Assembly (NCBI GenBank): GCA_964010765.1
Contig: CAXGMD010000049.1
Location: 1 to 27,006 of the forward strand
Source: an uncultured bacterium
GTDB lineage: Bacteria > SAR324 > NAC60-12
Length of the DNA: 27,006 nt
Reading direction: 5' to 3'
Made by a program: the position numbers and the translations under genes. Of the stretch, positions 1-21,959 are shown in pieces (position 1 is the stretch's first letter; each line of letters opens with the position of its first letter). A model generated the notes under the pieces. The model did no database searches, was not told the DNA's origin, and worked only from the letters and a program-made list of their open reading frames with translations.

Positions 1-60
1 TTCGCTGCAACTGGCAAACGTGTCAGAAGACTGCCAATCCGAAAGGAGGATCTGGCTTAG
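1..60 (+). CDS. C-terminal fragment of a xanthine dehydrogenase/isoquinoline 1-oxidoreductase-family molybdopterin-binding subunit (partial)
   Basis: Frame 1 reads FAATGKRVRRLPIRKEDLA-stop (TAG 58-60), matching the characteristic (NA)IFAATGKRxRxLP C-terminus of this family. Only 19 aa are visible. Confidence 0.7.
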   Translation, partial: FAATGKRVRRLPIRKEDLA

Positions 61-94
61 ATATCCATCGAAGCTGATTCAGGTTTAGATTGAA

Positions 95-1501
95 ATGACC
101 CCATCAATAGTCATTGTTGATGACTCCCGCAGCATTCGAGGGCACGTTCGCCGTGTCCTCGAATCTGCTCCAGAAACCTTTAGGGTAGTCGAGCACAAAG
201 ATGGACTGCAGGTCCTCCACTGGCTCAGCAAACTCTCCTCCAAAGAACTTCCTGACTTAATACTCCTCGACCGGAATATGCCTCATGTCACTGGAGATGA
301 GTGCATCCGGATACTCAAGGCTGATACCCACTGGAAAAACATTCCTGTTCTGTTTCTCACTGCCCAGGTCTCCACAGAGAACCTTGTCCAAGGTCTCGTT
401 CAACTTTCTGCAGATGACTACTTGCCCAAGCCATTCGCTGCAGATGAGTTGATCGCTAGGATTCAGGTTTTACTTCGCATGAAAAGAGCCGAGGATCAAT
501 CGAGAGATTTAAACAGACAACTTCAGAGCGCTTTTGATCAGCAGGTCTTGGCTTATCAAGAGTTAAAGACCACGAAGCTTAAGCTTGCAGAAACAGAAGC
601 AGCCAATCGGTTGACCAGGTTGTTCGAGAAGTTTGTACCGAAGGGCTTTTTAGAGAGAATCGCACCTGAGGGGCTAGAGTCTTTACGTTTTGGAACAGCA
701 GAGAGCGATGAGGCGACCATTCTTTTCAGTGACATTCGATCGTTTACGGATTTATCAGAACCACTTTCTCCCCAAGAGTTGATGGATTTTCTAAACGATT
801 ATCTAAAAATGATGAACATGTCGATCATGGTAAATCATGGTTTCGTCGATAAATTCATTGGGGATGCCGTCATGGCAATTTTTGACAAGACGGATCAGTC
901 AACAAATGATGCGAGGAATGCGCTGAATGCTGGGATGGGAATGCTACAAGTGCTGGGGACCATGAATCAAAAACGTCAGCGGCAAGGGCAAGTCCCAATT
1001 TCAATTGGAATTGGAGTACACACGGGACCTGTTGTTTTTGGAACACTTGGATTTGAAGAAAGAATGGATTCCACCGTATTAGGGGATGCAGTCAATTTAG
1101 CCTCAAGGCTTGAAGGGTTGACCAAATACTATGGAGCTTCTTTGCTCTTTTCAGATCAGACTCTGGAAACTCTCGGAGATCAACAAGATGGGCTGATGTT
1201 CAGAGAAATTGACCGGGTAATGGTGAAAGGGAGAAAGCAGCCGGTTACTATTTTCGAGTTGTTCAATAGCGAGAAGTCTGATGTGCAATCTGCAAAGAGG
1301 GCTGTGATGGAAAATCTTGAAGAACCACTGAGCTTGTACAGAACTCAGAAATGGGATGAGGCCGAGAAGATTTTCCGTGAGCTCGCTGAAAATCACCCTC
1401 TTGATTCGCTCCCTTCTATTTATGCGGAAAGGTGCCAGGAAATGCGAAAGAACCCTCCACCAGCCAACTGGGATGGTGTTCAGATATTCAATCAAAAATG
1501 A
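95..1501 (+). CDS. Response-regulator receiver domain fused to a class III adenylate cyclase with a C-terminal TPR-like tail
   Basis: REC motifs: VDDS, LLDRNMP (phosphoacceptor Asp), FLTA, PKPF. A coiled-coil-like linker follows. Cyclase motifs: FSDIRSFT, DKFIGDAVMA, GIGVHTG, DSTVLGDAVNLASRLE. The tail ends ...WDGV. Confidence 0.95.
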   Translation: MTPSIVIVDDSRSIRGHVRRVLESAPETFRVVEHKDGLQVLHWLSKLSSKELPDLILLDRNMPHVTGDECIRILKADTHWKNIPVLFLTAQVSTENLVQGLVQLSADDYLPKPFAADELIARIQVLLRMKRAEDQSRDLNRQLQSAFDQQVLAYQELKTTKLKLAETEAANRLTRLFEKFVPKGFLERIAPEGLESLRFGTAESDEATILFSDIRSFTDLSEPLSPQELMDFLNDYLKMMNMSIMVNHGFVDKFIGDAVMAIFDKTDQSTNDARNALNAGMGMLQVLGTMNQKRQRQGQVPISIGIGVHTGPVVFGTLGFEERMDSTVLGDAVNLASRLEGLTKYYGASLLFSDQTLETLGDQQDGLMFREIDRVMVKGRKQPVTIFELFNSEKSDVQSAKRAVMENLEEPLSLYRTQKWDEAEKIFRELAENHPLDSLPSIYAERCQEMRKNPPPANWDGVQIFNQK

Positions 1502-3507
1502 ATTTTGAAGCATTACCGGCAGAGGAATTTTTAGATGAAGCTCAAGAACTCCTGCAAGAGATTGAGGACTCCCTACTCTTACTGGAGGAAGAACCAAGCA
1601 GCTATGAAGTAATTCAACGATTATTTCGCTCCGCTCACACCCTCAAGGGTGGTGCTGCAATGGTTGGACTGATTGATTTAGCTAATGAAGCACACGAGTT
1701 TGAGGCAATTCTATCCAAACTAAGATCGGGTACCCTAAAAAGCTCTCCTCAAATTATCTCTGCCCTATTGAAAGGCAGAGATAATTTGCTTTCGTTGCTA
1801 AATCCCTTGATGAGTAGCTCACCAAATAATTCCTCCAGCAATGTTCAAAAAAAACCCACAGATCTTTCTCCAGATGAATCTAGCATTGAAGAGCTGACAC
1901 CGCTGAACAGATCTTCAATGCCACAAAGCAACACTTACCTAATTCATCTCAAATTTGATCCAGCTTGCTTGGAGCTTGGGCAAGAGCCAATGATGTTGTT
2001 GCGGCAGCTCGAGCAATTTGGGGAATTGACAGTAATCGCTCACACAAGTGATTTTCCCAACTGGTCTGATTTTGACCCTGTAAGATTGTACCTTTGGTGG
2101 AGTATTAAATTAGTCAGCAATAAGCCACTTGATGAAGTGGATCCACTACTGGAATTTTACCGAGGAGAACAATCGGAATTTCTGATTGAAGCAATAGAAA
2201 CTCCAGAAGAGAACGAACAGGAAGTTCAACAGGCTCACCAAAACATGCTTGCTCAAATCTCCGCTAAAGATGAGAAAATCGAGTATTCTGAACCAAGCCA
2301 AAATCCTGAACTGATGGAAGTTGATGTTTTAGAACTCCCAAAAACCAGCCAGACGATACGCGTTCCGGTTTCTAGATTAGATCGGTTGCAAAATTTGGTC
2401 AGTGAAACAGTCATCCGACAAGCTCGGCTCTTACGCCTTAATGATGCAATCCAGGCTACAGACGATCAATTGGGTGAGCAATTTCTTCAGTTTGTTGAAG
2501 ATAATGAACAAGCGGTCAGAGAGTTACAGGATCAAATCCAGCAAGTTCGTATGGTTCCAGTTGGGACAATCTTCGCTCCGATGAAGAGGGTTGTCCGTGA
2601 TTTTGCCAACCGCCGTCAAAAACAGATCAAACTAGACATTTATGGGGCTGAGACCGAGCTAGATAAAACAATCACTGAGCAGATTCAGGGGCCTCTGATG
2701 CACTTGCTTAGAAATGCCATGGATCATGGGATGGAAACTCCATCAGATCGAATTGATGCCGGGAAGAGCCCAACCGGCACGATAACTTTACAGGCTTCTC
2801 AACAACAGGGGTTTGTTATCGTTGAAATCGCCGATGATGGCCGGGGCCTGGACCCACAGAAGATCTTAGAAGCAGGCCGTAGGCTCGGAATGGTTGCTAT
2901 AGATCACCAGCCAAGCGAACAGGAAGTGCTTCAATTGATATTTCAACCAGGTTTCACAACCACCACAGAAGTCACAGAGACTTCTGGGCGTGGTGTAGGC
3001 ATGGACGCTGTAAAAAGAGATATTGAGGCGTTGCTTGGCAACATTGAAGTCAGCAGCCAACTTGGAAAAGGTACTGCACTCAAACTAAAGCTGCCTCTCT
3101 CGCTTGCAATTATTGAAGGGATGTTGGTTCGTGTTGGTAAAGAAATGTTTGTGCTGCCATTGTTGTTGGTCACCGAGACTCTTCGACCTCTTCCGAATCA
3201 GCAGAAGCGCTATAAAAATCAAGGCGAATTAATTGATATTCGAGGGCAGTATCTCCCCCTAGTACGGCTTCACCAGCGGCTCAAAATCGAGGGTGCTATT
3301 GATAAACCTGAAGAGGGATTGTTGATTGTCGTTCAACAGGGGACACAAAAATATTGTCTATTGGTTGACAGCATTGAAGATCAGTTGCCTGTTGTAATCA
3401 AGAGTCTGGAAGAACACTTCGTTCATATTCCAGGAATTGCTGGCGCAACAATACTTGGAGATGGTTCGGTGTGTTTTATTCTCGACGTCGCGGCTATTTT
3501 GAACTGA
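1498..3507 (+). CDS. cheA: Chemotaxis-family histidine kinase CheA
   Basis: Hpt (FRSAHTLKG), dimerisation (IRVPVSRLDRL), HATPase (HLLRNAMDHG, DDGRG, PGFTT, SGRGVGMD) and a C-terminal CheW-like domain. I place the start at ATG 1498, which overlaps the cyclase stop (ATGA), rather than 1432. Confidence 0.95.
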   Translation: MNFEALPAEEFLDEAQELLQEIEDSLLLLEEEPSSYEVIQRLFRSAHTLKGGAAMVGLIDLANEAHEFEAILSKLRSGTLKSSPQIISALLKGRDNLLSLLNPLMSSSPNNSSSNVQKKPTDLSPDESSIEELTPLNRSSMPQSNTYLIHLKFDPACLELGQEPMMLLRQLEQFGELTVIAHTSDFPNWSDFDPVRLYLWWSIKLVSNKPLDEVDPLLEFYRGEQSEFLIEAIETPEENEQEVQQAHQNMLAQISAKDEKIEYSEPSQNPELMEVDVLELPKTSQTIRVPVSRLDRLQNLVSETVIRQARLLRLNDAIQATDDQLGEQFLQFVEDNEQAVRELQDQIQQVRMVPVGTIFAPMKRVVRDFANRRQKQIKLDIYGAETELDKTITEQIQGPLMHLLRNAMDHGMETPSDRIDAGKSPTGTITLQASQQQGFVIVEIADDGRGLDPQKILEAGRRLGMVAIDHQPSEQEVLQLIFQPGFTTTTEVTETSGRGVGMDAVKRDIEALLGNIEVSSQLGKGTALKLKLPLSLAIIEGMLVRVGKEMFVLPLLLVTETLRPLPNQQKRYKNQGELIDIRGQYLPLVRLHQRLKIEGAIDKPEEGLLIVVQQGTQKYCLLVDSIEDQLPVVIKSLEEHFVHIPGIAGATILGDGSVCFILDVAAILN

Positions 3508-3517
3508 AAGAGGCCTC

Positions 3518-4057
3518 ATGGATTTCCAACCGCATCATGTGCTGGGGAATTTCAGTCTTCTAGATGAAGAAGATGAAAACTTTGATTATCAACTACTCCA
3601 TCACAATGGAGAACAGTGGCTTACTTTCAGGTTGGGGAAGGAGACCTATGGACTGGAGATTCTGCAAGTCCGCGAATTGATCAGTTATCCAGAGACCATC
3701 ACGCGCGTACCTAGGATGCCCTCATTTTTACTGGGTATGATCAATTTACGAGGAATGGTACTGCCCATAATGGATCTTCGAAAACGTTTTGAAATGGCTG
3801 AATATGAGACTGGCCCGTTCACAGTCATCATCATTGTTCAAATCAGAAGCAAAGTGATTGGTGTAGTAGTCGATTCTGTTGTGGATGTTGTGAATTTGCA
3901 GCAAGAAAATCTTTTAGAAGCTCCCGAAGAATCCACTGAACTAGACTCCAAGTTCGTTAAGGGACTCGCCAATCTGCGTGGAGAAATGGTCATTCTCCTA
4001 GATTTGGAACAATTACTAGCACCCGATGAATTAGAGCAACTCAGTATGCTCCGTTGA
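3518..4057 (+). CDS. cheW: Chemotaxis coupling protein CheW
   Basis: LTFRLGKETYGLEILQVRE, GMINLRG, VVVDSVVDV, ILLDLEQLL. AGAGG lies just upstream of the start. Confidence 0.95.
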   Translation: MDFQPHHVLGNFSLLDEEDENFDYQLLHHNGEQWLTFRLGKETYGLEILQVRELISYPETITRVPRMPSFLLGMINLRGMVLPIMDLRKRFEMAEYETGPFTVIIIVQIRSKVIGVVVDSVVDVVNLQQENLLEAPEESTELDSKFVKGLANLRGEMVILLDLEQLLAPDELEQLSMLR

Positions 4058-4073
4058 AATCCAGGTTAGCGTC

Positions 4074-5138
4074 GTGTTACCTCCCAAAATTCGTGTTCTG
4101 ATTATTGATGACTCGGCAATCGCACGAAATACTCTCAGCAGGATCTTGGAAACTGACCCAGAAATTCAAGTTGTTGGTACGGCTCCGGACGCCTTGATTG
4201 GGTTAAGAAAAATTAGTGAGTGCTTACCAGATGTTCTAACATTGGACGTCGAGATGCCCAAAATGGACGGACTGACCTTCTTAGAACGTCTGATGTCTTC
4301 CAAACCAATGCCAGTTGTGATGGTAAGCGCATATACTGCAGAGGGTTCCGAGACAGCTATGAAAGCCTTGGAATTGGGAGCTCTTGAAATCATTGAGAAG
4401 CCTCGGATTGATGTCAGTTCTGGACTTCAAGATCTTGCTCTGCAAATTACTGATAAGGTGAAAGCTGCCGCACAAGCAAAGCTCAAAACCCCTCAACAAC
4501 GATTCCATCAGCAAGTCATCCCAGGCAGACGAATTCGTTCAAATGCTAGCCAACTACCACGTATTGCCAACACACCCAACGTCATTGCTTTCGGGGCTTC
4601 TACGGGCGGAACCGATAGTCTTCGGGAAATTCTTGCAGAATTGTCCCCGGAGACTCCAGGGATCTTGATTGTCCAACATATGCCCAAAGCCTTTACCACC
4701 TCCTTTGCAAAAAATCTGGATCGGGTATCTAAAATCAGAGTCAAGGAAGCCGTCTCAGGAGATCGATTAGAACCTGGATTGGCCCTATTATCACCTGGTG
4801 ATCAACACCTTGAGTTGAGACGTGAGGCGTATGGTTATTGCGTTGAATTAAATTCTGGTGCCCTCTTCAATCGGCATAGACCCTCGGTGGATGTGCTCTT
4901 CGATTCAGTTGCTCAAAACGCCGGGATTGATTCAATGGGAATCTTGCTCACGGGTATGGGAAGTGATGGCGCAAAAGGGTTACTCCAAATGAGGCAAAAA
5001 GGGGCTTGGACGATTGCCCAAGAAGAAAGTAGTTGTGTCGTTTACGGTATGCCTAGAGTAGCAGTAGAATTGCAAGCACCTCGTGAAGTACTGAACCCTC
5101 AACAAATCATTGAACGTTTAGGGTTGCTTTTGCACTAA
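4074..5138 (+). CDS. cheB: Chemotaxis response regulator protein-glutamate methylesterase CheB
   Basis: REC domain (IIDDS, LDVEMP, EKP) plus methylesterase triad motifs GASTGG, QHMP and LTGMGSDG; RHRPSVDVLF. GTG start. Confidence 0.95.
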   Translation: MLPPKIRVLIIDDSAIARNTLSRILETDPEIQVVGTAPDALIGLRKISECLPDVLTLDVEMPKMDGLTFLERLMSSKPMPVVMVSAYTAEGSETAMKALELGALEIIEKPRIDVSSGLQDLALQITDKVKAAAQAKLKTPQQRFHQQVIPGRRIRSNASQLPRIANTPNVIAFGASTGGTDSLREILAELSPETPGILIVQHMPKAFTTSFAKNLDRVSKIRVKEAVSGDRLEPGLALLSPGDQHLELRREAYGYCVELNSGALFNRHRPSVDVLFDSVAQNAGIDSMGILLTGMGSDGAKGLLQMRQKGAWTIAQEESSCVVYGMPRVAVELQAPREVLNPQQIIERLGLLLH

Positions 5139-5180
5139 CTTATTGATAACTGGATATTTTTTGATATTCGTTTTCATTGA

Positions 5181-5226
5181 CTGAAGAATTCAATAATTTA
5201 GAAGTTGATCAATTATCCTTCTTCAG
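5181..5226. repeat. Interrupted inverted repeat between cheB and rpe
   Basis: CTGAAGAA (5181-5188) pairs with TTCTTCAG (5219-5226); inner ATAATT (5193-5198) pairs with AATTAT (5211-5216). Function unknown. Confidence 0.4.
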
Positions 5227-5253
5227 CAGATATCCTATACAGACAGTAAATGT

Positions 5254-5934
5254 ATGCCTGAAATCACCCTTTCTCCCTCAATTCTTTCTGCTGATTTTGC
5301 TCGTCTTGGTGAAGAAATTCGGGATGTATCCGAAGCAGGTGCAGACTGGATTCATGTGGATGTAATGGACGGTCACTATGTCCCGAATCTGACAATCGGT
5401 CCGGATGTTGTCAGAGCGATCCGTCCTTACACGTACAAGCCGTTCGATGTGCATTTGATGATTGAACCATATGAGCCCTATCTCGAGGCTTTTGCCAATG
5501 CGGGAGCAGACGTCATCACCGTTCATGTGGAGGCGGGTCATCACACTGATCGTGCAGTTCAACAGATTCGATCTAGGGGTAAGAAAGCCGGCGTTTCCCT
5601 TAATCCATCAACTCCCGAAAGTTCATTGGAGTATCTCATGGAGAAGCTGGATTTGATTCTGGTGATGAGTGTCAATCCAGGATTTGGAGGACAAACTTTT
5701 CTAGAATCACAACTACGAAAAATCCGAAGAATTCGAGAGATGATTGGGGATCGTTCGATTGAGCTGGAAGTCGATGGAGGAATCACACCTGAAAATATTG
5801 GAAAAGTTGTCGAGGCAGGTGCCAATGTAGTCGTAGCCGGCTCAGCGGTCTTTCAAGGTGGAACTTCAGCTGATTATAAGAAAAATTTGGATTCACTGCG
5901 GAAAGCAGCCAACGCTCACTACACTCCCAAATAA
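5254..5934 (+). CDS. rpe: Ribulose-phosphate 3-epimerase
   Basis: [50 protein letters not shown]. Confidence 0.97.
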
Positions 5935-6629
5935 CGGCGGATTAATTCAGGATTTTTCCGAAGCTCTTTGCTCATCCCCTCCCAAACAATCCGTCCACGT
6001 TCCATTAGAAAATGTTGATCAACCAAACGCATCAGTTGCTCAAGGTTTTTGTCGATTAACAAAATTGATTGACCCTGCTCCTTTAGGGACTCCAACACAC
6101 CCCAAATTTCATCTCGAATCAGTGGTGCAAGTCCTTCTGTGGCTTCGTCCAGTATCAGCAACTTAGGATTAGTCATTAAAGCACGGCCAATCGCCAACAT
6201 CTGTTGCTCTCCACCAGAGAGAGAGTTGCCCAATTGGTCTCTCCTATCCCGGAGAATTGGGAACAAATCATAAACTTTTTTGAGATCCCAAGCAGAGTTT
6301 AGATTGTGCCGATTCGCTGCGGTTGCGAGTAAATTTTCTCGGACAGTCAGCAATGGAAAAATCTGACGTCCCTCAGGGACCAAACCGATACCCAGCCGGC
6401 TGATTCGATATGCTGGCCATTGCTGAACTTCCTGACCAGAAAATCGAACTTTACCTGCGCTTGCTTGAGTGATCCCCAAAAGGGAGCGAATTGTCGTAGT
6501 TTTGCCCATTCCGTTACGGCCAAGAAGGGATACCACAGTTCCAGAATATACTTCCAGATTTACTCCAAACAGAACTTGGGACCTTCCATAGGCTGCTTGC
6601 AGATTTTCAATTTGCAACAGGGATTTCAT
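5919..6629 (-). CDS. Liv/HAAT-family ABC transporter ATP-binding subunit (LivF-like)
   Basis: Walker [45 protein letters not shown]. Likely start MKSLLQ at 6629. Confidence 0.93.
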
Positions 6630-7365
6630 GCTCACCCAAATAGGCACTACAAACTTCTTTATTCTCCCGGATTTCACTAGGTGTGCCGGTGGCAATCACG
6701 TGCCCATAAACCAAAACGGACACACGATCTGCAACAGAAAATACTGCATCCATGTCATGTTCAATTAAAAGCATCGTGATCTTGCCCTTCAATTGCTGCA
6801 GCAGCTCGACAACCTTCAAACTTTCCTCGGGCCCCATCCCTGCCATCGGTTCATCTAGTAGCAACAATTTAGGTTCTAAAGCCAAGGCCATTGCCAGTTC
6901 TAATTGACGTTGTTGACCATGCGCCAAGGCATAAGCTGGGATCTCTGATTCTCGATCAAGGCCAACCTGCTTTAAATATTCTTTGGCTTTTGATCGTAAT
7001 TCAAAATCATTACGAGCTACTTTCCAAAATCGAAAACTGTGTCCTTGTTGACTTTGTAGAACCAAATTGACATTTTCCAAGGCGCTGAACTCAGGAAATA
7101 CTGATGTGATTTGGAATGATCGAACCAGCCCCAATCTCGGGCGAATTGTCTCTGGAACCTGCAAAAAATTTCTTCCATGAAATTTGATCAGGCCTGAATC
7201 AGGTTGTAGCGATCCACTCAACAGTGAAATCAATGTTGTCTTGCCTGCTCCGTTGGGCCCGATCAAAGCGTGGAGTTCTCCCTGATTAATTTGCAGACTG
7301 AGATTATCAGTGGCAGCAAGTGCTCCGAATCTCTTGTGGAGATGCTCAATTTGCAAAAGCGCCAT
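6607..7365 (-). CDS. Liv/HAAT-family ABC transporter ATP-binding subunit (LivG-like)
   Basis: GPNGAGKTT, RSFQ, LLLLDEPMAGM, IEHDMD, AYLG. Confidence 0.93.
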   Translation of the reverse strand: MALLQIEHLHKRFGALAATDNLSLQINQGELHALIGPNGAGKTTLISLLSGSLQPDSGLIKFHGRNFLQVPETIRPRLGLVRSFQITSVFPEFSALENVNLVLQSQQGHSFRFWKVARNDFELRSKAKEYLKQVGLDRESEIPAYALAHGQQRQLELAMALALEPKLLLLDEPMAGMGPEESLKVVELLQQLKGKITMLLIEHDMDAVFSVADRVSVLVYGHVIATGTPSEIRENKEVCSAYLGEHEIPVAN

Positions 7366-8374
7366 CGACCCCTTTCATCTGCTTGAACACCAACGCATGC
7401 AGACCCCCTTTTGCAAAAAGTACAATGCCGATGAGGAGTGGACCGAAAACTAACCGCCAGTGTTCGCTAAACAGGTATAGCCCTATTTCTTGAAACAGCA
7501 GAGGGAGAAATTCCTCGAGCAACAGGAAGACAATCGCTCCCAGAATTGGCCCAGTCCAAGTTCCAATACCTCCGAGGATCACCATGATCAGTAGGTCCCC
7601 CGAGCGAGTCCAATGCAAAAAATCGGGACTCACAAACTCCATGTGATTTGTTAACAGAGCACCCGAAAGGCCTGCCAAAGCACCTGCAATCACAAAGGCC
7701 ACCAGCATGTAGGGGTAAGGTGGAACTCCAATGGCTTTCAGACGTGTTTCATTCTGCCGCAGTGCATGCAATACCATCCCAAATCGAGACATGGAAAGTC
7801 TTCGCAAAAACCATGTTGCCAGACCTAGTGCAACTAAGCTGAGCCAATACATTTGCCGATCTTCACCCAAATCAAGACCAGGGATTTTGTTTCGTCCATC
7901 CATCATCATCAGGCCGTCATCTCCGCCATATTGTTCCAAGGAAACGAAGAAGTAGAAAAGCATCTGAGCAAATGCAAGAGTGATCATGATGAAGTAGATG
8001 CCTCTAGTTCTGAGACATAGAGCACCAATTCCAAGCGCCACTATCCCAGAGACAATCATGGCGAATGGGATAGAGATGAATCCCTCCAGGGTTCCAGGCA
8101 ATCCCAAAAAATTTGTTTCCTCGTATTGATGCCAAGCCAGAATGCCCACAACATAAGCACCCACTCCCACATAGGCTGAGTGGCCAAAGCTGACAAGCCC
8201 CGCAAACCCGACAAGCAAATTCAGACTCATGGCAGCAAGCGCATAGATCCAGATACGTGAGGCTGTTGAAACCAGATAGGGTTCATCCAGCCAATCAGCA
8301 AACCAGGGGAAGCCAATGAGTAGAATACCAACTCCCAACATTAGTCTTGCCTCAAAATTCTCAGAAACCATCAT
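7346..8374 (-). CDS. Liv/HAAT-family ABC transporter permease (LivM-like)
   Basis: Multi-TM protein with GLVSFGHS, YFIMITLAFAQM, GGDDG and MVILGGIG. Confidence 0.93.
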   Translation of the reverse strand: MMVSENFEARLMLGVGILLIGFPWFADWLDEPYLVSTASRIWIYALAAMSLNLLVGFAGLVSFGHSAYVGVGAYVVGILAWHQYEETNFLGLPGTLEGFISIPFAMIVSGIVALGIGALCLRTRGIYFIMITLAFAQMLFYFFVSLEQYGGDDGLMMMDGRNKIPGLDLGEDRQMYWLSLVALGLATWFLRRLSMSRFGMVLHALRQNETRLKAIGVPPYPYMLVAFVIAGALAGLSGALLTNHMEFVSPDFLHWTRSGDLLIMVILGGIGTWTGPILGAIVFLLLEEFLPLLFQEIGLYLFSEHWRLVFGPLLIGIVLFAKGGLHALVFKQMKGVDGAFAN

Positions 8375-9294
8375 CGAACACGACCGAGGACAGGAAGAAT
8401 ACCTTGCGGTCGAAAGATTAAGACTAACGCCATCAGCAGGTAAACCGACATTGAAGAAAGGGCAGCACCAATACTGTCTGCAAAATCAAGTGGAAGTATC
8501 AGGCGTAGACCACTTGCCAAAAATGCCCTTCCGAGGGTATCGACCATGCCAATCAATAGGGCACCAAATAGAGCGCCCCGAATAGAGCCCAATCCACCAA
8601 TCACGATACAAACAAAGCAAAGAATCAGGACGTTTTCTCCCATTCCTACTTCTACTGAAATCAACGGCCCTGCCAGGGCTCCTGCAAAACCCGCCAAAAG
8701 TGCTCCCAACACAAAAAGCCCTGTATTCAGTAGAGTCAAATTTACTCCCAAGGCCTCGACCATCTCCCGGTGAGTAGTCCCTGCACGAAGAAGCATTCCT
8801 GCCCGAGTGTGCGAAATTAACAAATACAGGAAAAAAGCGAGGAGCAGACCAGTACCAATGATCAGCAGTCGGTAGAGTGGGTAGAGCAGGCCGGGTAAAA
8901 TTTCTACAGAGATGCTTAGCGTCTCTGGCAAACTGAGGAAGAGAGGAGCACGCCCAAAGCAGATCGTCGTTAACTCATTCAGAAAAAGAATTAAACCAAA
9001 GGTTGCCAAAACCTGGTCCAGATGATCTCTACGGTAGAGTTGACGGATTATAACCAACTCCACGAGCCACCCCGTGAAAGCAGCAGCAGGTAAGGCCATC
9101 AACAGGCCCCACCAAAAAGAGCCTGTCCACTGCATTCCAATTGCGGTGGCGTAGGCTCCAACCATATACAAGGAACCATGGGCAAGATTGATTACCCCCA
9201 TGATCCCAAAAATCAGCGTCAACCCTGCGGACACAAGAAAAAGGAATACGCCGAATTGAAGACCATTCAGTAGCTGTTCAATCAGCAGAATCAA
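8371..9294 (-). CDS. Liv/HAAT-family ABC transporter permease (LivH-like)
   Basis: QLLNGLQFG, GLTLIFGIMGVINLAHG, IGGLGSI, FRPQG. TTG start; stop overlaps the next gene (ATGA). Confidence 0.93.
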   Translation of the reverse strand: MILLIEQLLNGLQFGVFLFLVSAGLTLIFGIMGVINLAHGSLYMVGAYATAIGMQWTGSFWWGLLMALPAAAFTGWLVELVIIRQLYRRDHLDQVLATFGLILFLNELTTICFGRAPLFLSLPETLSISVEILPGLLYPLYRLLIIGTGLLLAFFLYLLISHTRAGMLLRAGTTHREMVEALGVNLTLLNTGLFVLGALLAGFAGALAGPLISVEVGMGENVLILCFVCIVIGGLGSIRGALFGALLIGMVDTLGRAFLASGLRLILPLDFADSIGAALSSMSVYLLMALVLIFRPQGILPVLGRVR

Positions 9295-9329
9295 GTAATT
9301 ACTCTGGAACCGCTAACTTATAAGGGCCC

Positions 9330-10508
9330 TTAGCGGAGCCCACATTCCTGAACGTAGGCATCCTGATGATCAGTTGCTACTTTTCGTAAAATACGGTTTT
9401 GCATCTGACCATTCTTTTTGACAACTTCACGAATGTAGAGATCGTGGATTGGATGCTGATTGGAAGCAAATCGAAAATTCCCTCGAACGGACGCAAACTT
9501 AGCGGTCTTCAATGCCTCACGGAAACCTGCCTTATCCTCCAGTACCTTTCCTCCTGTTGCTTTCAATGCGCTAGCAATGAGCTTTGCGGTATCGTAACCT
9601 TGGCTTGCGTAGAGAGTCGGCTCGCGTTCAAATTTACTCCGAAAACCCAAAAGGAATTGCTGATTGGCTGCATTGTCTAAGTCATGGTTCCACTGAGAAG
9701 TGCTGATGATACCGGAGCCAGCATCACCGATTGCGTTGAGAATTTTAATATCAGCCGAAAATCCTGAAACAACCATAGCAGAATCTTTCATCAGGCCTGC
9801 TTGTGAATACTGTTTGAGGAAGTTGATTCCCATTCCTCCGGGCAAAAACTGAAAGACCATTTCTGGCTTCGCAGCTCGGATCCGAGCGATTTCAGCAGCG
9901 TAGTCGTTCTGCCCCAGCTTGACATAAATTTCGTCAATGACTTCACCTTTGAAGAATCGTTTAAATCCAGCCAAAGCATCTTTCCCAGCCTGATAATTGG
10001 GCGCTAGCAACAGAGCTTTTTTATAGCCTAGTTCTGTAGCACCCATTCCTGCTGCCTCGTGTAGGGTGTCGTTCTGCCATGACACTACAAAATAGTTCTC
10101 ATGACATTCTTTCCCCGCAAAAGTCGAGGGAGCTGAGTTCGGAGAGATGTAGAAAATTCCATCCTTCAAGGCCATCGGTGCCACTACTGGAGAGATATTC
10201 GAAAAAATCACACCTGTTAAAATGGATATTCGATCCCGATCCAGGAATCTTTTGACGATTTGTCTTCCATTGACCGGATTTCGTCCATCGTCTTCAACAA
10301 GGACTTCAACAGGGACCCCACCAAGTTTTCCATCTTCTTCTTCGACGGCCAGAAGAAATCCATCTCGGACATCTTGACCAAGATAACCACCACCAGTAGA
10401 AAGAGTAGTGACCATCCCAATTTTGACTGGCTCTTGAGTGAAGCCCGCATTGGCCAAACCCAAGCCCAGTACCAAAGTTCCCAAAAGGGTTTGAAGCAGT
10501 TTTTTCAT
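9330..10508 (-). CDS. Liv/HAAT-family periplasmic substrate-binding protein, resembling aromatic-acid-binding members
   Basis: Signal peptide; VKIGMVTTLS, GGVPVEVLVEDD, SWQND, APNYQAGKD, QGYDTA. AAGGA spacing favours ATG 10508 (alternative 10514). The substrate class is an inference. Confidence 0.88.
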   Translation of the reverse strand: MKKLLQTLLGTLVLGLGLANAGFTQEPVKIGMVTTLSTGGGYLGQDVRDGFLLAVEEEDGKLGGVPVEVLVEDDGRNPVNGRQIVKRFLDRDRISILTGVIFSNISPVVAPMALKDGIFYISPNSAPSTFAGKECHENYFVVSWQNDTLHEAAGMGATELGYKKALLLAPNYQAGKDALAGFKRFFKGEVIDEIYVKLGQNDYAAEIARIRAAKPEMVFQFLPGGMGINFLKQYSQAGLMKDSAMVVSGFSADIKILNAIGDAGSGIISTSQWNHDLDNAANQQFLLGFRSKFEREPTLYASQGYDTAKLIASALKATGGKVLEDKAGFREALKTAKFASVRGNFRFASNQHPIHDLYIREVVKKNGQMQNRILRKVATDHQDAYVQECGLR

Positions 10509-10538
10509 TTTCATTCCTTATATGGTAGTTACTGAAAC

Positions 10539-11834: not shown

Positions 11835-12530
11835 TCAACGAGTCATTCGATAAATGCGCTCTGGACGGCCAACACCACCATAACTCACATCCACCTCCAC
11901 ACTACCGCGGCTTACAAGATATTCCAGATAGCGACGTGCAGTTGTCCGACTCGCTCCAACCCTCTCGGCCATTTCCTCTGAGGTAAACATTGTTGAGCAC
12001 TCCTTCATTTCTTCAAAGATTTTGTCTAGAGTCACAGGATCAATTCCTTTCGGTAGCCCTGAATCCATCCGCGAGGAATCAGTTGGTTTTTCCTGGTGGA
12101 TGATCCGATCAATATCAGACTGATTCAGACTGTCCAAGGATTGTAGATTGGAATGGTGAGTGCGATAGCGCCGGAGAGTTTGTTCAAAGCGAGAGAACAC
12201 TACGGGCTTTAGAATGTAATCAAAGACTCCTCCACGGAGGGCTTCCTGAAGCAGACGCACTTCTTTGGCTGCAGTGATCGGAATGATATCCAGTGCTTGC
12301 GAACGAAGACGAATTTCCTTGAGCAACTCAATCCCTGAGCCGTCAGGAAAATAGATATCTAACAGAAGCAACTGTGGCTCCATTACTTCAATCTGAAGCT
12401 TAGTATCTTCCAAAGTATTAGAAAGGCCAATCACTTCAAATCCTTCGAATTTGCTGACGTAGTGCTGGTGAATCTCGGTAATCCGAGGATCATCATCCGC
12501 AATCAGAACTCTGGTGACCATCTTCATCAT
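11835..12530 (-). CDS. CitB/DcuR-family response regulator
   Basis: IADDD, LLDIYFPDGSG, ITAA, DYILKP, LPKGID, HTH SRTTARRYLEYL, YGGVGRP. The start could be 12530, 12527 or 12521. Confidence 0.93.
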   Translation of the reverse strand: MMKMVTRVLIADDDPRITEIHQHYVSKFEGFEVIGLSNTLEDTKLQIEVMEPQLLLLDIYFPDGSGIELLKEIRLRSQALDIIPITAAKEVRLLQEALRGGVFDYILKPVVFSRFEQTLRRYRTHHSNLQSLDSLNQSDIDRIIHQEKPTDSSRMDSGLPKGIDPVTLDKIFEEMKECSTMFTSEEMAERVGASRTTARRYLEYLVSRGSVEVDVSYGGVGRPERIYRMTR

Positions 12531-14154
12531 TCGTAGTGGTTTTAGGGATGTACGCGGTGAAACGGGCACCGCCTAATGAACTTTTCCCAATCGTCAGGTG
12601 CCCGTGAATTTGAATCAGATTTTTCTGCACTAGTCTCAGGCCAATTCCTCGTCCCATGCCTGATTTTGTTGTGAAACCCTCATCAAAAATTGTCTCTTGC
12701 TGCTCTTGGCTGATCCCTGGTCCAGAATCTTCTATTTCGAAGATCAACTCATTACCCACATCTGTCATTGACAGGGTCACTTTTTTTCTACCTTCAACCA
12801 AGGCCGATGCCTCCAACGCATTTTCTAGCAGATTCCCTATAATTGTAATGATTTTTTCACTGCGACTGGAATGGCCGATGTTACCCATTGAGCTTTCTGG
12901 ATCAATCTCCAACTCTGTTTTGAGTTCCAGAGCCCGATGATACTTACCAACAATAATCGCAGAGAGAAATGGGTCATGGATTTGGTCAGAAAGTTGACGC
13001 AACAGGGCATTATAACCGGAAGACTCACGGCCGATTAAGTCCAGTGACTCTTGCGTTGCACCAATCTGAATCAGACCTGCAAGAGTGTGTAATTTGTTCG
13101 AGTATTCATGTGTTTGTGCCCGCAATGCTTGAGAATATTCTCGAATACTTGTCAACTCTTGAACAAGTCGGTCAATCTCCTGTGCTCGCCGAAAACTGGA
13201 AACCACTCCCGTCACATGATCTTGTTCTAAAATAGGGACTCGGTTTACCACGACCTCTTCCTCTTCGATCAACATTTCTTGATCATACTCCCCTTTACCT
13301 GTTTTTAGGACTTCCAGCATTCTCGTTTCTGGCAGGAGTTGTTCGATGGGACGTCCCAGAGCTTCTTCTGGAGAGAAACCCAAGATCTGGGCTGCCTGAT
13401 GATTCATCACGGTCACATCCCCTTTCTCATTGATGGCAATGATTCCCTCACGAATCGACTCCAACAACGCCGTCCGCTCTCGATACAGACCGGCGATCTC
13501 GTAAGGCTCCAAACCAAAGATAGAACGCTTTACCTCTCGTGCAATGAACCAAGTTCCCAATGCTCCTACTGCGAATAGCCCTAGAATCCAGAAAAGAAGT
13601 CGCTGCTGATAAGGCTGGATTACATCCTGAACGGTCTCGATGAGGTAGCCCACAGAAACAACCCCAAGAATTTCCCCTCCGCTTGAGAAAATAGGAACCT
13701 TTCCACGGAGAGAAGGCCCCAGAGTACCAACGGCAATCGAGACATAGGACTGTCCTTGGACAAGTGCTCTCTCATTATCTCCTCCAACCATGTACTTTCC
13801 AATGCGCTCAGGAACGGGGTGACTGTAGCGTTTGCCTTCATAATCACCAACTACAACAAAACTTGCCCCTGTTGCCTCCCGCACACTTTCTGCGTATCTC
13901 TGGATCCCATCCGGCTCTAGCTGAATCAGTCCCTGAGAAACTATCGGCGAAAGAGAGACTGAGCGGGAAACATTCAGTGCTACTCGACCAATATATTCAT
14001 TGAGGATTCCTGTGACAATTTGATTCCCAATGAAACCCGTCGCACAAACCAACAGGACTAACAAACCCATCATCAACAACAACATTCTCTTACCAAGTGA
14101 ACGCGGCAGCCATTTTTGAAATGCGGAATAACTTGGTGTTGGATTAGGTAGCAT
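12493..14154 (-). CDS. CitA/DcuS-family sensor histidine kinase, probably citrate-sensing
   Basis: Two TMs flank a Cache domain with RYSHP and GTLGPSLRGK (CitA-type citrate-binding Arg/His/Arg/Lys pattern). PAS; H-box LRAQTHEYSNKLH; GNLLENA, DSGPG, GRGIGL. GAGG upstream supports ATG 14154. Confidence 0.93.
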   Translation of the reverse strand: MLPNPTPSYSAFQKWLPRSLGKRMLLLMMGLLVLLVCATGFIGNQIVTGILNEYIGRVALNVSRSVSLSPIVSQGLIQLEPDGIQRYAESVREATGASFVVVGDYEGKRYSHPVPERIGKYMVGGDNERALVQGQSYVSIAVGTLGPSLRGKVPIFSSGGEILGVVSVGYLIETVQDVIQPYQQRLLFWILGLFAVGALGTWFIAREVKRSIFGLEPYEIAGLYRERTALLESIREGIIAINEKGDVTVMNHQAAQILGFSPEEALGRPIEQLLPETRMLEVLKTGKGEYDQEMLIEEEEVVVNRVPILEQDHVTGVVSSFRRAQEIDRLVQELTSIREYSQALRAQTHEYSNKLHTLAGLIQIGATQESLDLIGRESSGYNALLRQLSDQIHDPFLSAIIVGKYHRALELKTELEIDPESSMGNIGHSSRSEKIITIIGNLLENALEASALVEGRKKVTLSMTDVGNELIFEIEDSGPGISQEQQETIFDEGFTTKSGMGRGIGLRLVQKNLIQIHGHLTIGKSSLGGARFTAYIPKTTTNDEDGHQSSDCG

Positions 14155-14171
14155 CAGTTCCTCAGCTTGAT

Positions 14172-14196
14172 TGTGAACTTTATGAACAGTATGCAC
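14172..14196. promoter_or_regulatory. Three tandem heptamers with a 9-bp period; candidate response-regulator binding array
   Basis: TGTGAAC (14172), TATGAAC (14181) and TATGCAC (14190) in the divergent kinase/tctC intergenic region. Confidence 0.5.
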
Positions 14197-14229
14197 GAAA
14201 CAGAATCAAAAAATTTTAAACCCAGAAGA

Positions 14230-14376
14230 TTGACCTGAAGGGAGGTTCAACATATTTCTTTGGTGCGAAAGTGCAAAGGAGTTTATCCTGCTGCATTACT
14301 CAGGTCGAAATGACAATTCCGACAATGGACGGAATCCATGCACTTTCGACATCAGGAACGGAGGTAACTTCGTTTT
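14230..14376 (+). ncRNA. Candidate structured cis-regulatory leader RNA of tctCBA
   Basis: Several overlapping, mutually exclusive stems and two GNRA-capped hairpins (see findings). I recognised no known riboswitch. Confidence 0.4.
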
Positions 14377-14410
14377 CAATTCATGTTTTACGAAAATTAG
14401 GAGGGATGGC

Positions 14411-15403
14411 ATGCGTAAATCAATGCAATCAATATTGGGAATCTTGACTGGAACAGCAATTGCGGCAACCACGATGCTTGGGGTTGCGATGGCTAAGCCA
14501 GGCAATACCGAATGTATCGCGCCGGCTGGTGCTGGAGGAGGATGGGATTTCACCTGTCGTGTACCAGCTGCGCAAGTAATGGGGGACATGGGGCTAATTG
14601 ACGGCACAATGGCGGTGACCAACATGTCTGGTGCCGGTGGCGGAAAAGCGTATGCCCACGTTGTAACAAAGCGAGGTGATGATGAGAATCTGATTGTCGC
14701 AGCTAGTATGGCCACTGCAGCACGTCTTGGACAGAACGTTTATTCTGGTTTCAAGGCCTCTGATGTTCGCTGGGTCGGTGCCCTAGGAGCAGACTACGGA
14801 GCGATTGCTGTTCATAAAGACTCTCAGTTCAAGACTTTAAGCGATCTCGTCACAGCAATGAAAGACAACCCTCGACGTACGGCAATTGTTGGGGGTAGTT
14901 CCGCAGGGGGGTGGGATCACTTGAAAGTTCTTATTGTGGCTGACAAAGCTGGGATCTCCGATCTGAAGGCAATCAATTACATCTCCTTCGACAACGGTGG
15001 TACGGCAATGTTGGAAATCCTATCCAAGCGAGCCGATGCTTTCACTGGTGACATCTCTGAATTAGTAGAATACGAGAAGCAGGGTAATATCCGAATCCTA
15101 GCGATTCTTGCCCCAGATCGAATACCAGCTGTTCCTTCAGCTAAAACAGCCAAAGAGCAAGGGTATGATGTGATTGGAGCTAACTGGAGAGGTTTCTACG
15201 TGCCCAAAAACATCTCCAATGCTCGTTACAAAGAGTGGGTTGACATTGTTACCAAAGTTGCTAATTCAAGCCAATGGTCTGACCTGAGCGCCAAGAACGG
15301 CCTAGCGCCATTCAAATCCTTCGGTAAAGATTTTGAGAACTTTGTAGGTGGGCAAATTGGAAAAGTTGCTCAAATTTCCACTGATCTTGGCTTCATGAAG
15401 TAA
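14411..15403 (+). CDS. tctC: Tripartite tricarboxylate transporter substrate-binding protein TctC
   Basis: Signal peptide; ECIAPAGAGGGWDFTCR, NMSGAGGG, GGSSAGGWDH, NWRGFY. RBS AGGAGG. Confidence 0.93.
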   Translation: MRKSMQSILGILTGTAIAATTMLGVAMAKPGNTECIAPAGAGGGWDFTCRVPAAQVMGDMGLIDGTMAVTNMSGAGGGKAYAHVVTKRGDDENLIVAASMATAARLGQNVYSGFKASDVRWVGALGADYGAIAVHKDSQFKTLSDLVTAMKDNPRRTAIVGGSSAGGWDHLKVLIVADKAGISDLKAINYISFDNGGTAMLEILSKRADAFTGDISELVEYEKQGNIRILAILAPDRIPAVPSAKTAKEQGYDVIGANWRGFYVPKNISNARYKEWVDIVTKVANSSQWSDLSAKNGLAPFKSFGKDFENFVGGQIGKVAQISTDLGFMK

Positions 15404-15858
15404 TGAAGTCCTGGGGAGAGGGAGGAGCAGACAGACTATCTGCCCTGATCATATTAGGATTTGGTTTGGCCTACGGATACGCAGGCAAATTCATTCAAGT
15501 AGGATTCTATAATGGGGATATTGGTCCTCATCATTGGATCTACATGGTTGCATCCGTAATGGTTTTGCTTGGTTTTGGACTCGTTCTTAGGCCAACACAG
15601 CACGAGTTTGAAGCCGAAGTCTGGGAGGATTGGCGAAAGCGACTTCCTCTTGTAGGTGTGATCATCATTTATTCATTGTTCCTACCCTACACTGGGTTTC
15701 TTGGTGCTATGATTCTGATGATGATTGTTGTTGCCAAACTTTTCGGAGCAAACTGGAAACAGGCCATTCTCTGCTCTGTCATCCTCTCTCTCCTCTGTCT
15801 GCTACTCTTTGACCACCTGCTGGGGATTTCCCTCGGTCGTGGCCTCTGGCTGAAATAA
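15403..15858 (+). CDS. tctB: Tripartite tricarboxylate transporter small membrane subunit TctB
   Basis: 151-aa multi-TM protein between tctC and tctA; GP motif, GFL, C-terminal LFDHLLGISLGRG; TAATG coupling with tctC. Confidence 0.88.
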   Translation: MKSWGEGGADRLSALIILGFGLAYGYAGKFIQVGFYNGDIGPHHWIYMVASVMVLLGFGLVLRPTQHEFEAEVWEDWRKRLPLVGVIIIYSLFLPYTGFLGAMILMMIVVAKLFGANWKQAILCSVILSLLCLLLFDHLLGISLGRGLWLK

Positions 15859-15872
15859 AGCTAGGAGGAAAC

Positions 15873-21248: not shown

Positions 21249-21327
21249 TAAAATTCCTGTAGTTGACAGGCTGCTGGGGGAAATCTCTATTGGCTAGAGT
21301 CCACGGCAAGTTGATAAGGGCAAAAAA

Positions 21328-21855: not shown

Positions 21856-21893
21856 AGAGTTCAAAACTCCAGGCTCCGCACTCGGATAACCCT

Positions 21894-21922: not shown

Positions 21923-21959
21923 TTCAGACCTCTACTTCAAACAAATCAATCGATCTTCG

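Follow-up and report, generated by a model that had tools for sequence, protein, structure and literature searches.

What does a chemosensory array control when the slot directly before cheA, the place of cheY, holds a gene for a receiver domain joined to a nucleotide cyclase? Such a gene opens a contig from the genome of an uncultured marine SAR324 bacterium, and the reading that we favour, and consider reasonably likely, is that phosphorylated CheA phosphorylates the receiver (REC) and thereby modulates cAMP synthesis – with both phosphotransfer and regulation being what we infer from the arrangement. With a REC-cyclase in the cheY slot, it is probably the cAMP level that chemoreceptor signals control. 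Directly established are the order of the genes, the intactness of the catalytic and phosphoacceptor residues and the conserved pairing of the two genes.

The window – the whole stretch of DNA analysed, 27,006 nucleotides long – is the entire contig, and the cyclase gene begins 94 nt from its start. The features on which the argument draws are the following.

1–60, forward strand: 3′ end of a molybdopterin-binding oxidoreductase gene, truncated at the first base of the contig, which leaves 19 codons and a TAG stop
95–1501, forward strand: response regulator–adenylate cyclase gene (468 aa, P0001), with Pfam Response_reg and Guanylate_cyc
95–439, forward strand: receiver domain (aa 1–115), with D9, D10, D59, T89 and K112
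440–634, forward strand: linker helix (aa 116–180), continuous from REC helix 5 (DSSP on the monomer model)
698–1264, forward strand: class III cyclase catalytic domain (aa 202–390), with D213, K253, D257, T327, N334, R338 and K378
1277–1450, forward strand: C-terminal helical tail (aa 395–452), four helices in the model, without a Pfam match
1498–3507, forward strand: cheA (669 aa, P0002), which shares ATGA (1498–1501) with the end of the cyclase gene
1498–1821, forward strand: CheA P1 (Pfam Hpt) four-helix bundle, with H47 in an HTLKG motif
1930–2202, forward strand: β-α-β-β-α-β domain at the P2 position of CheA (aa 145–235), a conserved alignment block
2347–3504, forward strand: CheA P3 (dimerisation), P4 (ATPase) and P5 (CheW-like), from Pfam
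3518–4057, forward strand: cheW (179 aa; Pfam CheW, 133.3 bits)
4074–5138, forward strand: cheB (354 aa), REC plus CheB_methylest (Pfam; NCBIfam NF001965, 409.8 bits against a cut-off of 293)

The order REC-cyclase, cheA, cheW, cheB that an earlier note on this DNA had described is borne out by Pfam, and the ATGA overlap it had pointed to between the cyclase gene and cheA is there. CheA, CheW and CheB are the only chemosensory core genes within the window; cheR and a receptor gene are not on the contig. From base 1, frame 1 runs without a stop as far as the TAG at 58–60, and bases 1–94 align with the end of a MoCoBD_2 open reading frame lying just 5′ of the cyclase gene in a related locus (L003). 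Since only 94 nt of the window, itself an entire contig, precede the cyclase gene, the front of the operon is cut off, and the note’s statement that the operon holds no stand-alone CheY stands for the assembled DNA and not for the missing front. Where the upstream DNA of relatives is intact, it carries either STAS–MCP–CheR (more distant orthologues) or DUF4399–MCP–2Fe2S–molybdopterin oxidoreductase genes (DUF4399–MCP–Fer2–MoCo, in close relatives), with cheY in neither arrangement, and a STAS gene lies 5′ of the regulator in most relatives. An MCP of 534 aa is encoded at the end of another contig, C28, which probably precedes the cyclase contig (C49). In the C49-type cluster cheR is missing across the genus, and it is present in the genome’s two other Che clusters. 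A promoter and terminator scan of positions 1–6000 gave counts at chance level and nothing informative.

Both halves of the regulator are clear family members: residues 5–124 match Pfam Response_reg (PF00072; 80.1 bits against a cut-off of 30.2) and residues 203–385 match Guanylate_cyc (PF00211; 92.1 bits against 21.9). In the receiver, D9 and D10 (which we take to be the acidic pocket), D59 (presumably the phosphoacceptor) and T89 and K112 (presumably the conserved Thr and Lys) are all invariant in 17 relatives. The domain resembles CheY no more closely than an ordinary receiver does, and the receivers that it matches best in PDB and NCBIfam are of the PleD and PhoB types. What had been called a coiled coil is one continuous helix of 65 residues (116–180) in the monomer model (mean pLDDT 83.8; DSSP), followed by a short conserved helix (183–189) before the cyclase; the pre-catalytic residues E178, F180, V181, P182 and F185, invariant in the 17 relatives, form what we take to be a ‘cyclase transducer element’. 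The tail beyond the catalytic domain folds in the model into helices 395–406, 409–416, 420–433 and 439–452 (pLDDT about 90).

The catalytic domain is probably an adenylate-specific class III cyclase, with cAMP as the predicted product. Its closest solved relative is Pseudomonas aeruginosa CyaB (3r5g, E = 2.5e-31), followed by 2w01 (1.5e-27) and 1wc0 (1.1e-23), and D213, K253, D257, T327, N334, R338 and K378 each stand opposite an identical residue in the CyaB alignment. We take D213 and D257 to be the metal ligands, K253 and T327 to contact adenine, and N334 and R338 to serve the transition state; the phosphoacceptor Asp and the metal Asps, Lys, Asn and Arg that had been claimed for this protein are all present. 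The domain might instead make cGMP or another nucleotide product in vivo, or act only as a scaffold, and substrate choice is indeed read from K253 and T327 only, a Lys/Thr pair that is presumably the adenine-specifying pattern. We regard that reading as extremely improbable, however: alignment with the adenylate cyclases CyaB (3r5g) and cyanobacterial 1wc0 and 2w01 shows the corresponding residues to be in place, and the catalytic residues are all invariant in the 17 relatives (D213, K253, D257, N334 and R338 strictly, T327 nearly so).

On the kinase side, CheA has Pfam Hpt, H-kinase_dim (284–349), HATPase_c (400–535) and CheW (540–669) domains, and its ending at residue 669 with the CheW-like domain agrees with the earlier claim that it lacks a fused receiver. 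The N-terminus models as the P1 bundle, a linker and a conserved α/β domain of 90 residues (pLDDT 77–90 for the last); the P1 model superposes on Thermotoga maritima CheA P1 (1tqg) with a VIA-align Z of 18.2, and H47 is invariant in the 17 relatives. The domain at the P2 position is harder to place. A Pfam scan of residues 140–245 at E up to 10 returned no family; VIA-align of residues 143–234 (from a two-domain model) found ACT/ferredoxin-like folds only, at a best Z of 8.1 and with no CheA P2 entry among the matches; and the Foldseek top match is the Escherichia coli P1–P2 construct 2lp4, but at an rmsd of 16. We consider this conserved domain a candidate response-regulator docking domain, as the following model suggests.

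A complex of CheA 1–240 with REC 1–130, modelled alongside three controls, scored 0.65, against 0.00 for the best control. Of 157 solved complexes 116 reach this mark, as do 2 of 215 mismatched pairs, a benchmark that applies only roughly here because custom alignments were used; part of the pass may also reflect likeness, since CheA–CheY complexes have already been solved. The runs share at least 83% of contacts, with a partner pLDDT of at least 84. REC docks on the P2-position domain, with a predicted CheA interface at residues 146–150, 178–185, 202, 204 and 229–235 and a predicted REC contact face formed by helices 2 and 3 – to our knowledge not the face used in the solved CheA/CheY–P2 complexes. 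The modelled contact surfaces are strongly conserved in both proteins: the invariant CheA residues L148 and H182 are predicted contacts and invariant W201 adjoins contact residue 202, while on REC invariant L41, D68, D77 and W80 are predicted contacts and invariant G67 and I71 lie inside the contact stretch 64–80.

Whether the two genes belong together can be judged from how often they stay together, and conservation of the linkage in related genomes had been set as a test of the idea. Among 88 SAR324 genomes, 27 full-length matches of at least 46% identity were found in 21 genomes, and 26 of them are followed immediately by cheA in the same orientation (15/15 of the window type, 11/12 of a second type), so the pairing is not chance. 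Of the 15 window-type orthologues from reference genomes, eight show the ATGA overlap and seven have spacers of about 50–270 nt. On metagenome contigs, cheA follows within 450 nt at 54 of 80 loci, a contig end cuts 17 and nine have none, that is, linkage at 54 of 63 assessable loci and at all 54 with at least 47% identity. The one exception among the 27 (G057:C33, 50% identity) has its cyclase gene away from cheA and a classical histidine kinase two genes upstream.

That exception fits the view that another histidine kinase phosphorylates the REC-cyclase and that adjacency to cheA is regulatory or historical, as do the more distant REC-cyclases of the metagenome set (36–46% identity), of which nine out of nine are not linked to cheA. 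Against co-expression as the whole story stand the near-universal adjacency among closer relatives, which persists across a GC range of 38–61% and a rearranged remainder of the cluster, the overlap of the genes in many lineages, and a docking model that passes its controls; we judge it very unlikely. RNA libraries from four runs hold sequences at least 95% alike, and in two of them contigs bridge the cyclase/cheA junction (X1, 1454–1752; X2, 1454–1718) and cover cheA–cheW–cheB; as one contig is not one transcript and DNA carry-over is possible, they count as weak evidence. Library bins without contig cover (X2, X12, X18) were treated as uninformative and not read as absence.

Beyond SAR324, the pairing did not turn up in the searches made. 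In the phylum of G088 (which holds a Verrucomicrobia record), 301 genomes searched with five candidates per genome at E ≤ 1e-45 gave 21 matches in 18 genomes; the sole full-length one (G344:C38) has glycoside hydrolase genes and a LacI gene as neighbours and no cheA. In the phylum of G089, a search of 301 genomes at E ≤ 1e-50 found matches in 64, with cheA at 0 of 30 inspected loci (flanks of about 1.5 kb). Both searches are insensitive, and their query was a SAR324 family sequence, so they are blind to independently arisen fusions. Further matches outside SAR324 (L012–L019) are confined to the cyclase part, and their surroundings hold no che genes.

If CheA and the cyclase are partners, is the cyclase the only, or even the main, target of the kinase? 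The genome encodes flagellar proteins (two FlhA and four FliG_C matches) and an orphan CheY-like gene at C116:4614–4994 (179 bits against a cut-off of 189 on the CheY equivalog) that lies outside all three of its Che clusters, C49, C62 and C8, each of which encodes a REC-cyclase. Motility may therefore be a second output, and the claim that cAMP is the output of this system needs qualifying to the extent that cAMP need not be the sole one. In a stronger form of the argument, CheA would mainly phosphorylate the orphan CheY for the flagellar motor, and the REC-cyclase would be a side branch, either as an additional output or by drawing off phosphate and so shaping the kinetics of CheY~P. Across the phylum, FlhA occurs in 77 of the 88 SAR324 genomes and a CheY-family match at E ≤ 1e-35 in 67; those genomes of genus g2 that have flagellar genes have this cluster as their sole CheA match; and because none of the three CheA clusters here includes a canonical CheY, at least one CheA must serve the orphan CheY if it is used for taxis.

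Other observations weigh against a motility-first CheA. An intact and invariant catalytic centre speaks against a mere sink, and the docking model places the P2-position domain on REC residues that are conserved in the family. The presence of CheY does not track the cluster, since three g2 genomes (G021, G025, G030) have FlhA and a CheY-like match without a CheA match; conversely, two genomes of genus g11 (G058, G059) keep their clusters without a CheY match at E ≤ 1e-35, weak evidence because they are only 87–90% complete. As a discriminator, the phyletic pattern of CheY is patchy, confounded by incomplete genomes and not decisive. Overall we consider it unlikely that CheA works chiefly through the orphan CheY. 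As an aside, stops in the cyclase, cheA and flhA genes of one genome (G035) raised the idea of co-decay, which was dropped; with several genes split in a five-contig assembly, assembly frameshifts are the likelier cause. That the REC-cyclase is the output of this particular CheA, as had been proposed, gains from its being the only non-CheB receiver encoded with CheA, from its occupying the CheY slot and from the docking model, which together make it a probable partner.

How far does the system resemble those already known? The Wsp system of Pseudomonas (WspA–F plus WspR) has in common with it a core of chemoreceptor, CheW, CheA and CheB (with or without CheR) and a regulator composed of receiver, stalk and nucleotide cyclase. 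WspR is a REC-GGDEF protein, and WspE, the CheA of Wsp, carries a fused C-terminal receiver. A dedicated regulator of this build makes a second messenger, and not motor switching, the output of the array. The two systems differ in that the output domain is GGDEF in WspR but a class III adenylate cyclase in SAR324, whose CheA lacks the fused receiver and keeps the P2-position domain; SAR324 further has flagellar genes, an orphan CheY and, in most relatives, a STAS gene 5′ of the regulator. Within the chemosensory class scheme of Wuichet and Zhulin (17 F classes plus Tfp and ACF; PMC7534058), the Wsp-like (ACF-class) trait of a hybrid CheA with a C-terminal receiver is absent from SAR324, whereas that of a dedicated multidomain regulator with enzymatic output in the cluster is present in the 26 of 27 relatives. 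The proposed likeness to Wsp is therefore imperfect, and the cluster as a whole resembles CheY–CheA clusters.

Such clusters occur within SAR324 itself: at L095, L096, L097 and L099 a single-domain CheY lies immediately before CheA (32–36% identity), and the P1/linker/middle-domain layout of CheA and the position of the receiver gene directly before cheA are shared. Their receiver is a CheY of 120–136 aa, to which the SAR324 cyclase adds 350 residues of helix, cyclase and helical tail. A second comparison is with Pil-Chp and CyaB of P. aeruginosa, likewise a chemosensory system that ends in cAMP and the source of the closest solved catalytic domain. CyaB is not known to have a receiver domain, whereas the SAR324 cyclase has one in the same polypeptide, encoded beside cheA; Pil-Chp is described as reaching CyaB indirectly through single-domain regulators and accessory proteins.

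The layout is not without precedent. For a che cluster of delta proteobacterium NaphS2, chosen for its CheR-TPR fusion, Munoz-Martinez et al. 2012 (PMC3447774, supplementary file 3, row 107) list the regulator ‘REC - CHD Mononucleotidyl cyclase’, a table entry likened to SAR324 by its description. A REC-cyclase in a che cluster was thus already tabulated in 2012, and it is the wiring from chemoreceptor to cAMP that is inferred here. The suggestion of novelty survives insofar as no characterised Che-to-REC-cyclase system was found in full-text literature, whose coverage is sparse for subscription journals, including the 2010 classification paper; it does not survive for the layout itself. No principle is overturned, and surveys already hint at such regulators.

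How might the parts work together? As their families suggest, a membrane chemoreceptor – likely the 534-aa MCP at the neighbouring contig end – and CheW would control autophosphorylation of CheA on H47. The P2-position domain may then hold the cyclase receiver by its helix 2/helix 3 face, as in the model, allowing phosphorylated P1 to hand its phosphoryl group to D59. The resulting change in REC would be relayed through helix 116–180 and the pre-catalytic motif to a dimeric catalytic domain, raising or lowering the rate of cAMP formation, and CheB, phosphorylated by the same CheA, would reset the receptor. Further downstream, and speculatively, cAMP might act on the genome’s proteins with cyclic-nucleotide (cNMP) domains: an MscS-like channel, a GGDEF protein, an MBL-fold protein and an ABC exporter. 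No regulator of CRP type and size was found in the genome.

A bolder reading, tentative and on balance doubtful, is that cAMP has become the output of the chemoreceptor arrays throughout this SAR324 family. A receiver-cyclase would have taken the CheY slot in two ancient paralogous cluster types, with a third type having its own receiver-cyclase, so that all three arrays of a flagellated cell converge on cAMP; the P2-position domain would be a dedicated docking module for the helix 2/helix 3 face; and cAMP would act through the cNMP-gated MscS-like channel, the cNMP-GGDEF enzyme and the cNMP-ABC exporter rather than a CRP-type regulator. Behaviour, perhaps including motility, would then be set by a second messenger and not by CheY at the motor.

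For experiment, the locus offers a soluble regulator of 468 aa with all its catalytic residues and a cognate CheA whose candidate docking domain has specified contact residues; two paralogous systems in one genome allow specificity to be compared, with the orphan CheY as competitor. Chemotaxis-type arrays are the most sensitive, adaptive sensors of bacteria, and few of their non-motility outputs have been studied, the best known being c-di-GMP through Wsp. If true, a direct link from array to cAMP would add a second-messenger output with a different downstream logic, and would do so in SAR324, which few uncultured groups of the dark ocean exceed in abundance.

Open reading frames and Pfam domains confirm the gene order that the earlier note had read from the sequence – REC-cyclase (a receiver joined to a class III adenylate cyclase), cheA, cheW and cheB – on contig C49, whose 27,006 bases make up the entire window and which belongs to source genome G000 (3.86 Mb in 266 contigs, 92% complete). 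The stop of the REC-cyclase gene overlaps the start of cheA in an ATGA, and the proposed absence of a receiver from CheA is borne out by its domain content.

Genes of the operon and its downstream neighbour
95-1501, forward strand: REC-cyclase gene, 468 aa (Pfam Response_reg 80.1 bits, Guanylate_cyc 92.1 bits)
1498-3507, forward strand: cheA (domains Hpt, dimerisation, ATPase, CheW-like; no receiver)
3518-4057, forward strand: cheW (domain match)
4074-5138, forward strand: cheB (domain match)
5254-5934: ribulose-phosphate 3-epimerase gene, next after cheB and unrelated to the operon

A promoter and terminator consensus scan of this region (window 1-6000) gave no meaningful signal. Parts of window 1-5300 occur in 18 runs on record as RNA, and contigs of the RNA-library runs X1, X2, X12 and X18, labelled as metagenomes of salt marsh, estuarine and marine origin, match the operon with a likeness of at least 95%. 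The cyclase/cheA junction is bridged in X1 (1454-1752) and X2 (1454-1718), and contigs of the same two runs reach from the end of cheA across the whole cheW gene into the beginning of cheB (3280-4247 and 3280-4171, respectively). Such contigs reveal neither the strand nor whether one transcript covers the genes, could come from DNA and are only consistent with expression of the operon.

Elsewhere in the window, a DpiA/CitB-type response regulator and an sCache-PAS histidine kinase, encoded on the minus strand opposite a TctC-TctB-TctA tricarboxylate transporter operon (11835-17366), look like an ordinary carboxylate-sensing pair. The stretches 5919-10514 and 18415-27004 hold an unremarkable set of genes: those for an ABC transporter of the branched-chain amino acid type, with two ATPases, two permeases and a single binding protein, for two peptidases that form a TldD/PmbA pair, and for purine synthesis (SAICAR synthetase, parts of FGAM synthase, amidophosphoribosyltransferase).

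The description of the first protein as receiver, coiled coil and intact cyclase is right as judged by domains, residues and a structural model, the last being of a monomer, which cannot show coiling. The receiver has D9, D10, D59, T89 and K112, and the cyclase has D213, K253, D257, T327, N334, R338 and K378, each opposite an identical residue in the alignment with Pseudomonas aeruginosa CyaB, the best solved relative of the catalytic domain (3r5g, E 2.5e-31). Across 17 relatives – a set that takes in the third, divergent paralogue of G000 – no variation is seen at D213, K253, D257, N334 and R338, and T327 is nearly invariant. Because the Lys/Thr pair K253/T327 matches the family's adenine-specifying pattern, ATP is the substrate expected from the sequence. 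In the model (mean pLDDT 83.8), the receiver spans residues 1-115 and its last helix runs unbroken through residue 180; beyond this linker come a short conserved helix (183-189), the cyclase fold (202-390) and a four-helix tail (395-452).

The linkage of this gene to cheA in related genomes, which the earlier note had singled out for checking, proved to be conserved. When 88 SAR324 genomes were searched with the REC-cyclase and with CheA and the loci retrieved, 27 full-length matches of at least 46% identity emerged from 21 genomes, all within the window's family, and 26 of these are followed immediately by cheA on the same strand; four partial matches were omitted (G056:C382, G026:C138 and G051:C90, cut by contig ends, and G035:C4, with an internal stop). 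Six full-length loci from the first scan (L003-L008) are the same records as six of the 27 and are not independent; one of them, L003 from SAR324 cluster bacterium JCVI-SC AAA005, encodes a cyclase 93% identical to the window's. Two paralogous cluster kinds are represented, the window type (linked in 15 of 15 loci) and a second type (11 of 12) with the usual order STAS, REC-cyclase, CheA, CheW, MCP, CheR, CheB. The sole unlinked match (G057:C33; L041 3270-4706) has a 750-aa classical histidine kinase two genes upstream, and an epimerase gene also precedes it. An ATGA overlap is present in 8 of the 15 window-type loci, and the remaining 7, all from genus g2, have spacers. On metagenome contigs, cheA follows within 450 nt in 54 of 80 loci; a contig end cuts 17, and the 9 that have none are all at most 46% identical to the REC-cyclase. 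A metagenome subgroup of 58-61% GC retains the pairing though its CheA is mostly just 35-36% identical to the window's. Queries of two other phyla with this protein (301 genomes each) gave no cheA-linked relative among the loci inspected, and any such pairing outside SAR324 would therefore probably be a fusion that arose independently of this family.

Just 94 bases of contig precede the REC-cyclase gene, the first 60 being the end of another gene, which aligns with the last stretch of an ORF for a molybdopterin-binding oxidoreductase in L003. The upstream order in same-genus loci (L044, L104, L105) is DUF4399, a 534-aa MCP, a 2Fe-2S protein, the oxidoreductase and the REC-cyclase gene; since a 94%-identical DUF4399-MCP pair stands at the end of G000 contig C28, terminating 17 bases short of it, C28 is probably the contig that comes before C49. 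In orthologues farther removed (53-59% identity), the upstream genes are STAS, one to three MCPs and CheR. The claim that the operon lacks a stand-alone CheY agrees with its assembled part, and none of the relatives whose loci were inspected has a cheY within the cluster. As a block, the genes for the DUF4399 protein, the MCP (534 aa, two TM), the 2Fe-2S protein and the molybdopterin oxidoreductase accompany the window-type cluster (L029 7916-9986; L044 3525-8056; L054 1-3864; L055 2-3796), upstream of the cyclase in the window's genus and downstream of cheB in g2, and possibly hint at redox or aldehyde-related input.

G000 has three CheA genes, and every one of the three clusters includes a REC-cyclase.

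Che clusters of G000
C49, the window: REC-cyclase, CheA, CheW, CheB
C62 (L027 5592-14549): STAS, REC-cyclase (48% identity), CheA, CheW, MCP, CheR, CheB
C8 (L028 2664-15031): two single receivers, REC-cyclase, HAMP histidine kinase, CheA, CheW, two MCPs, CheR, CheB

At least six of the family's genera keep the C62-type order, and in most copies the small STAS gene directly adjoins the cyclase gene or overlaps it. All three tandem receivers of the C8 cluster share an insertion of about 30 residues after helix 1. Its CheA has a 150-aa N-terminal extension, and one of its MCPs (L028 9921-11333) has at its C-terminus a DFSEF-like motif whose second and fifth residues are aromatic and which resembles the CheR/CheB tethering pentapeptide.

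The genome also encodes flagellar proteins (two matches to FlhA, four to FliG_C), and a profile search of all its ORFs found 12 receiver ORFs of at most 200 aa. A cheY elsewhere, named beforehand in the earlier note as a refuter should it be the kinetically preferred partner, does exist: the CheY-like gene C116:4614-4994 (L032, L040) reaches 179 bits with the CheY equivalog model, a little under the cut-off of 189. A dual or motility-first role exerted through this orphan, which lies outside all Che clusters and is flanked by ExbB/ExbD/OmpA-like and riboflavin synthesis genes, is the main rival to a direct cAMP output, and in our estimation a rather unlikely one. The FliG_C matches lie on C7, C142, C66 and C177, and three have an identical score, 139.4 bits; the matches could reflect either true paralogues or strain contigs assembled in duplicate.

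Other SAR324 lineages (L095, L096, L097, L099) have a CheY of 120-136 aa immediately before a CheA of 32-36% identity, which carries a weakly recognisable version of the window CheA's middle domain. Judged by gene order, this comparison shows the REC-cyclase in the same gene slot as the CheY of its sister lineages. The fused receiver is 31-35% identical to these CheYs and to the orphan CheY; because this is ordinary receiver-level similarity, use of the slot is shared and the receiver's source is not indicated.

In 17 CheAs of both types, H47 in the P1 motif is invariant and a block at 145-235 is conserved between low-complexity linkers. The P1 bundle of the CheA model matches 1tqg (Z 18.2, rmsd 2.1, 104 residues aligned), and Foldseek with the whole model gave the E. 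coli P1-P2 construct 2lp4 as top match (E 2e-6, 256 columns, rmsd 16.2). The block, to which Pfam assigns no family, is modelled as a beta-alpha-beta-beta-alpha-beta domain (pLDDT 77-90), and the folds that VIA-align lists for it are all ACT-like (Z 8.1); we call it the domain at the P2 position, a name that gives its location in CheA and leaves aside whether it belongs to the P2 family.

Complex prediction of CheA 1-240 with REC 1-130 scored 0.65 (best of three controls 0.00), a level that 116 of 157 solved complexes attain, as do 2 of 215 mismatched pairs; these counts hold only roughly because our own alignments served as input. Runs share at least 83% of contacts, with a partner pLDDT of at least 84; because CheA-CheY complexes have already been solved, likeness to them may help the docking to pass. 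In the predicted interface, the middle-domain sheet (146-150, 178-185, 202, 204, 229-235) packs on helices 2 and 3 of the receiver (38-49, 64-80). Conservation is strong on both surfaces, the invariant contact residues being L148 and H182 of CheA and L41, D68, D77 and W80 of the receiver, while the invariant W201 (CheA), G67 and I71 (receiver) lie beside or inside the contact stretches. Solved CheY-P2 complexes engage the helix 4/strand 5/helix 5 face of CheY, a mode from which the modelled docking by helix 2 and helix 3 would differ.

As for possible receivers of cAMP, the cNMP_binding profile matched four proteins in G000, joined to an MscS-like channel (C202, L093), a GGDEF domain (C120, L094), a metallo-beta-lactamase fold (C13, L091) and an ABC exporter (C143, L092). 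Their ORFs, two of which a contig end truncates, measure between 425 and about 1000 aa and greatly exceed a CRP-type regulator in length. Because none is encoded in the window, to tie them to this operon is speculation.

A 2012 survey of CheR-TPR clusters includes 'mononucleotidyl cyclase' among receiver-fused domains in che clusters, and supplementary file 3 gives D8FCI6 of delta proteobacterium NaphS2 as 'REC - CHD Mononucleotidyl cyclase' (PMC3447774). A review of V. cholerae sets out the chemosensory class scheme and notes that roles can be unknown even for F-class systems (PMC7534058). A search of full-text literature that covered few subscription journals found no characterised array-to-REC-cyclase pathway. 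The genes, residues and pairing behind the earlier note's proposal – that CheA phosphorylates the receiver-cyclase directly, turning chemoreceptor input into cAMP – are confirmed, and we infer the control itself: that direct CheA-to-receiver phosphotransfer governs cAMP synthesis is the best-supported reading, and one we hold to be reasonably probable.

Chemosensory pathways whose output is a second messenger and not the motor are of a kind already known, and the REC-cyclase version would be a new variant of it; what gives this case its own interest is that one flagellated genome has the arrangement three times, that CheY is replaced in its own slot and that the docking model can be tested.
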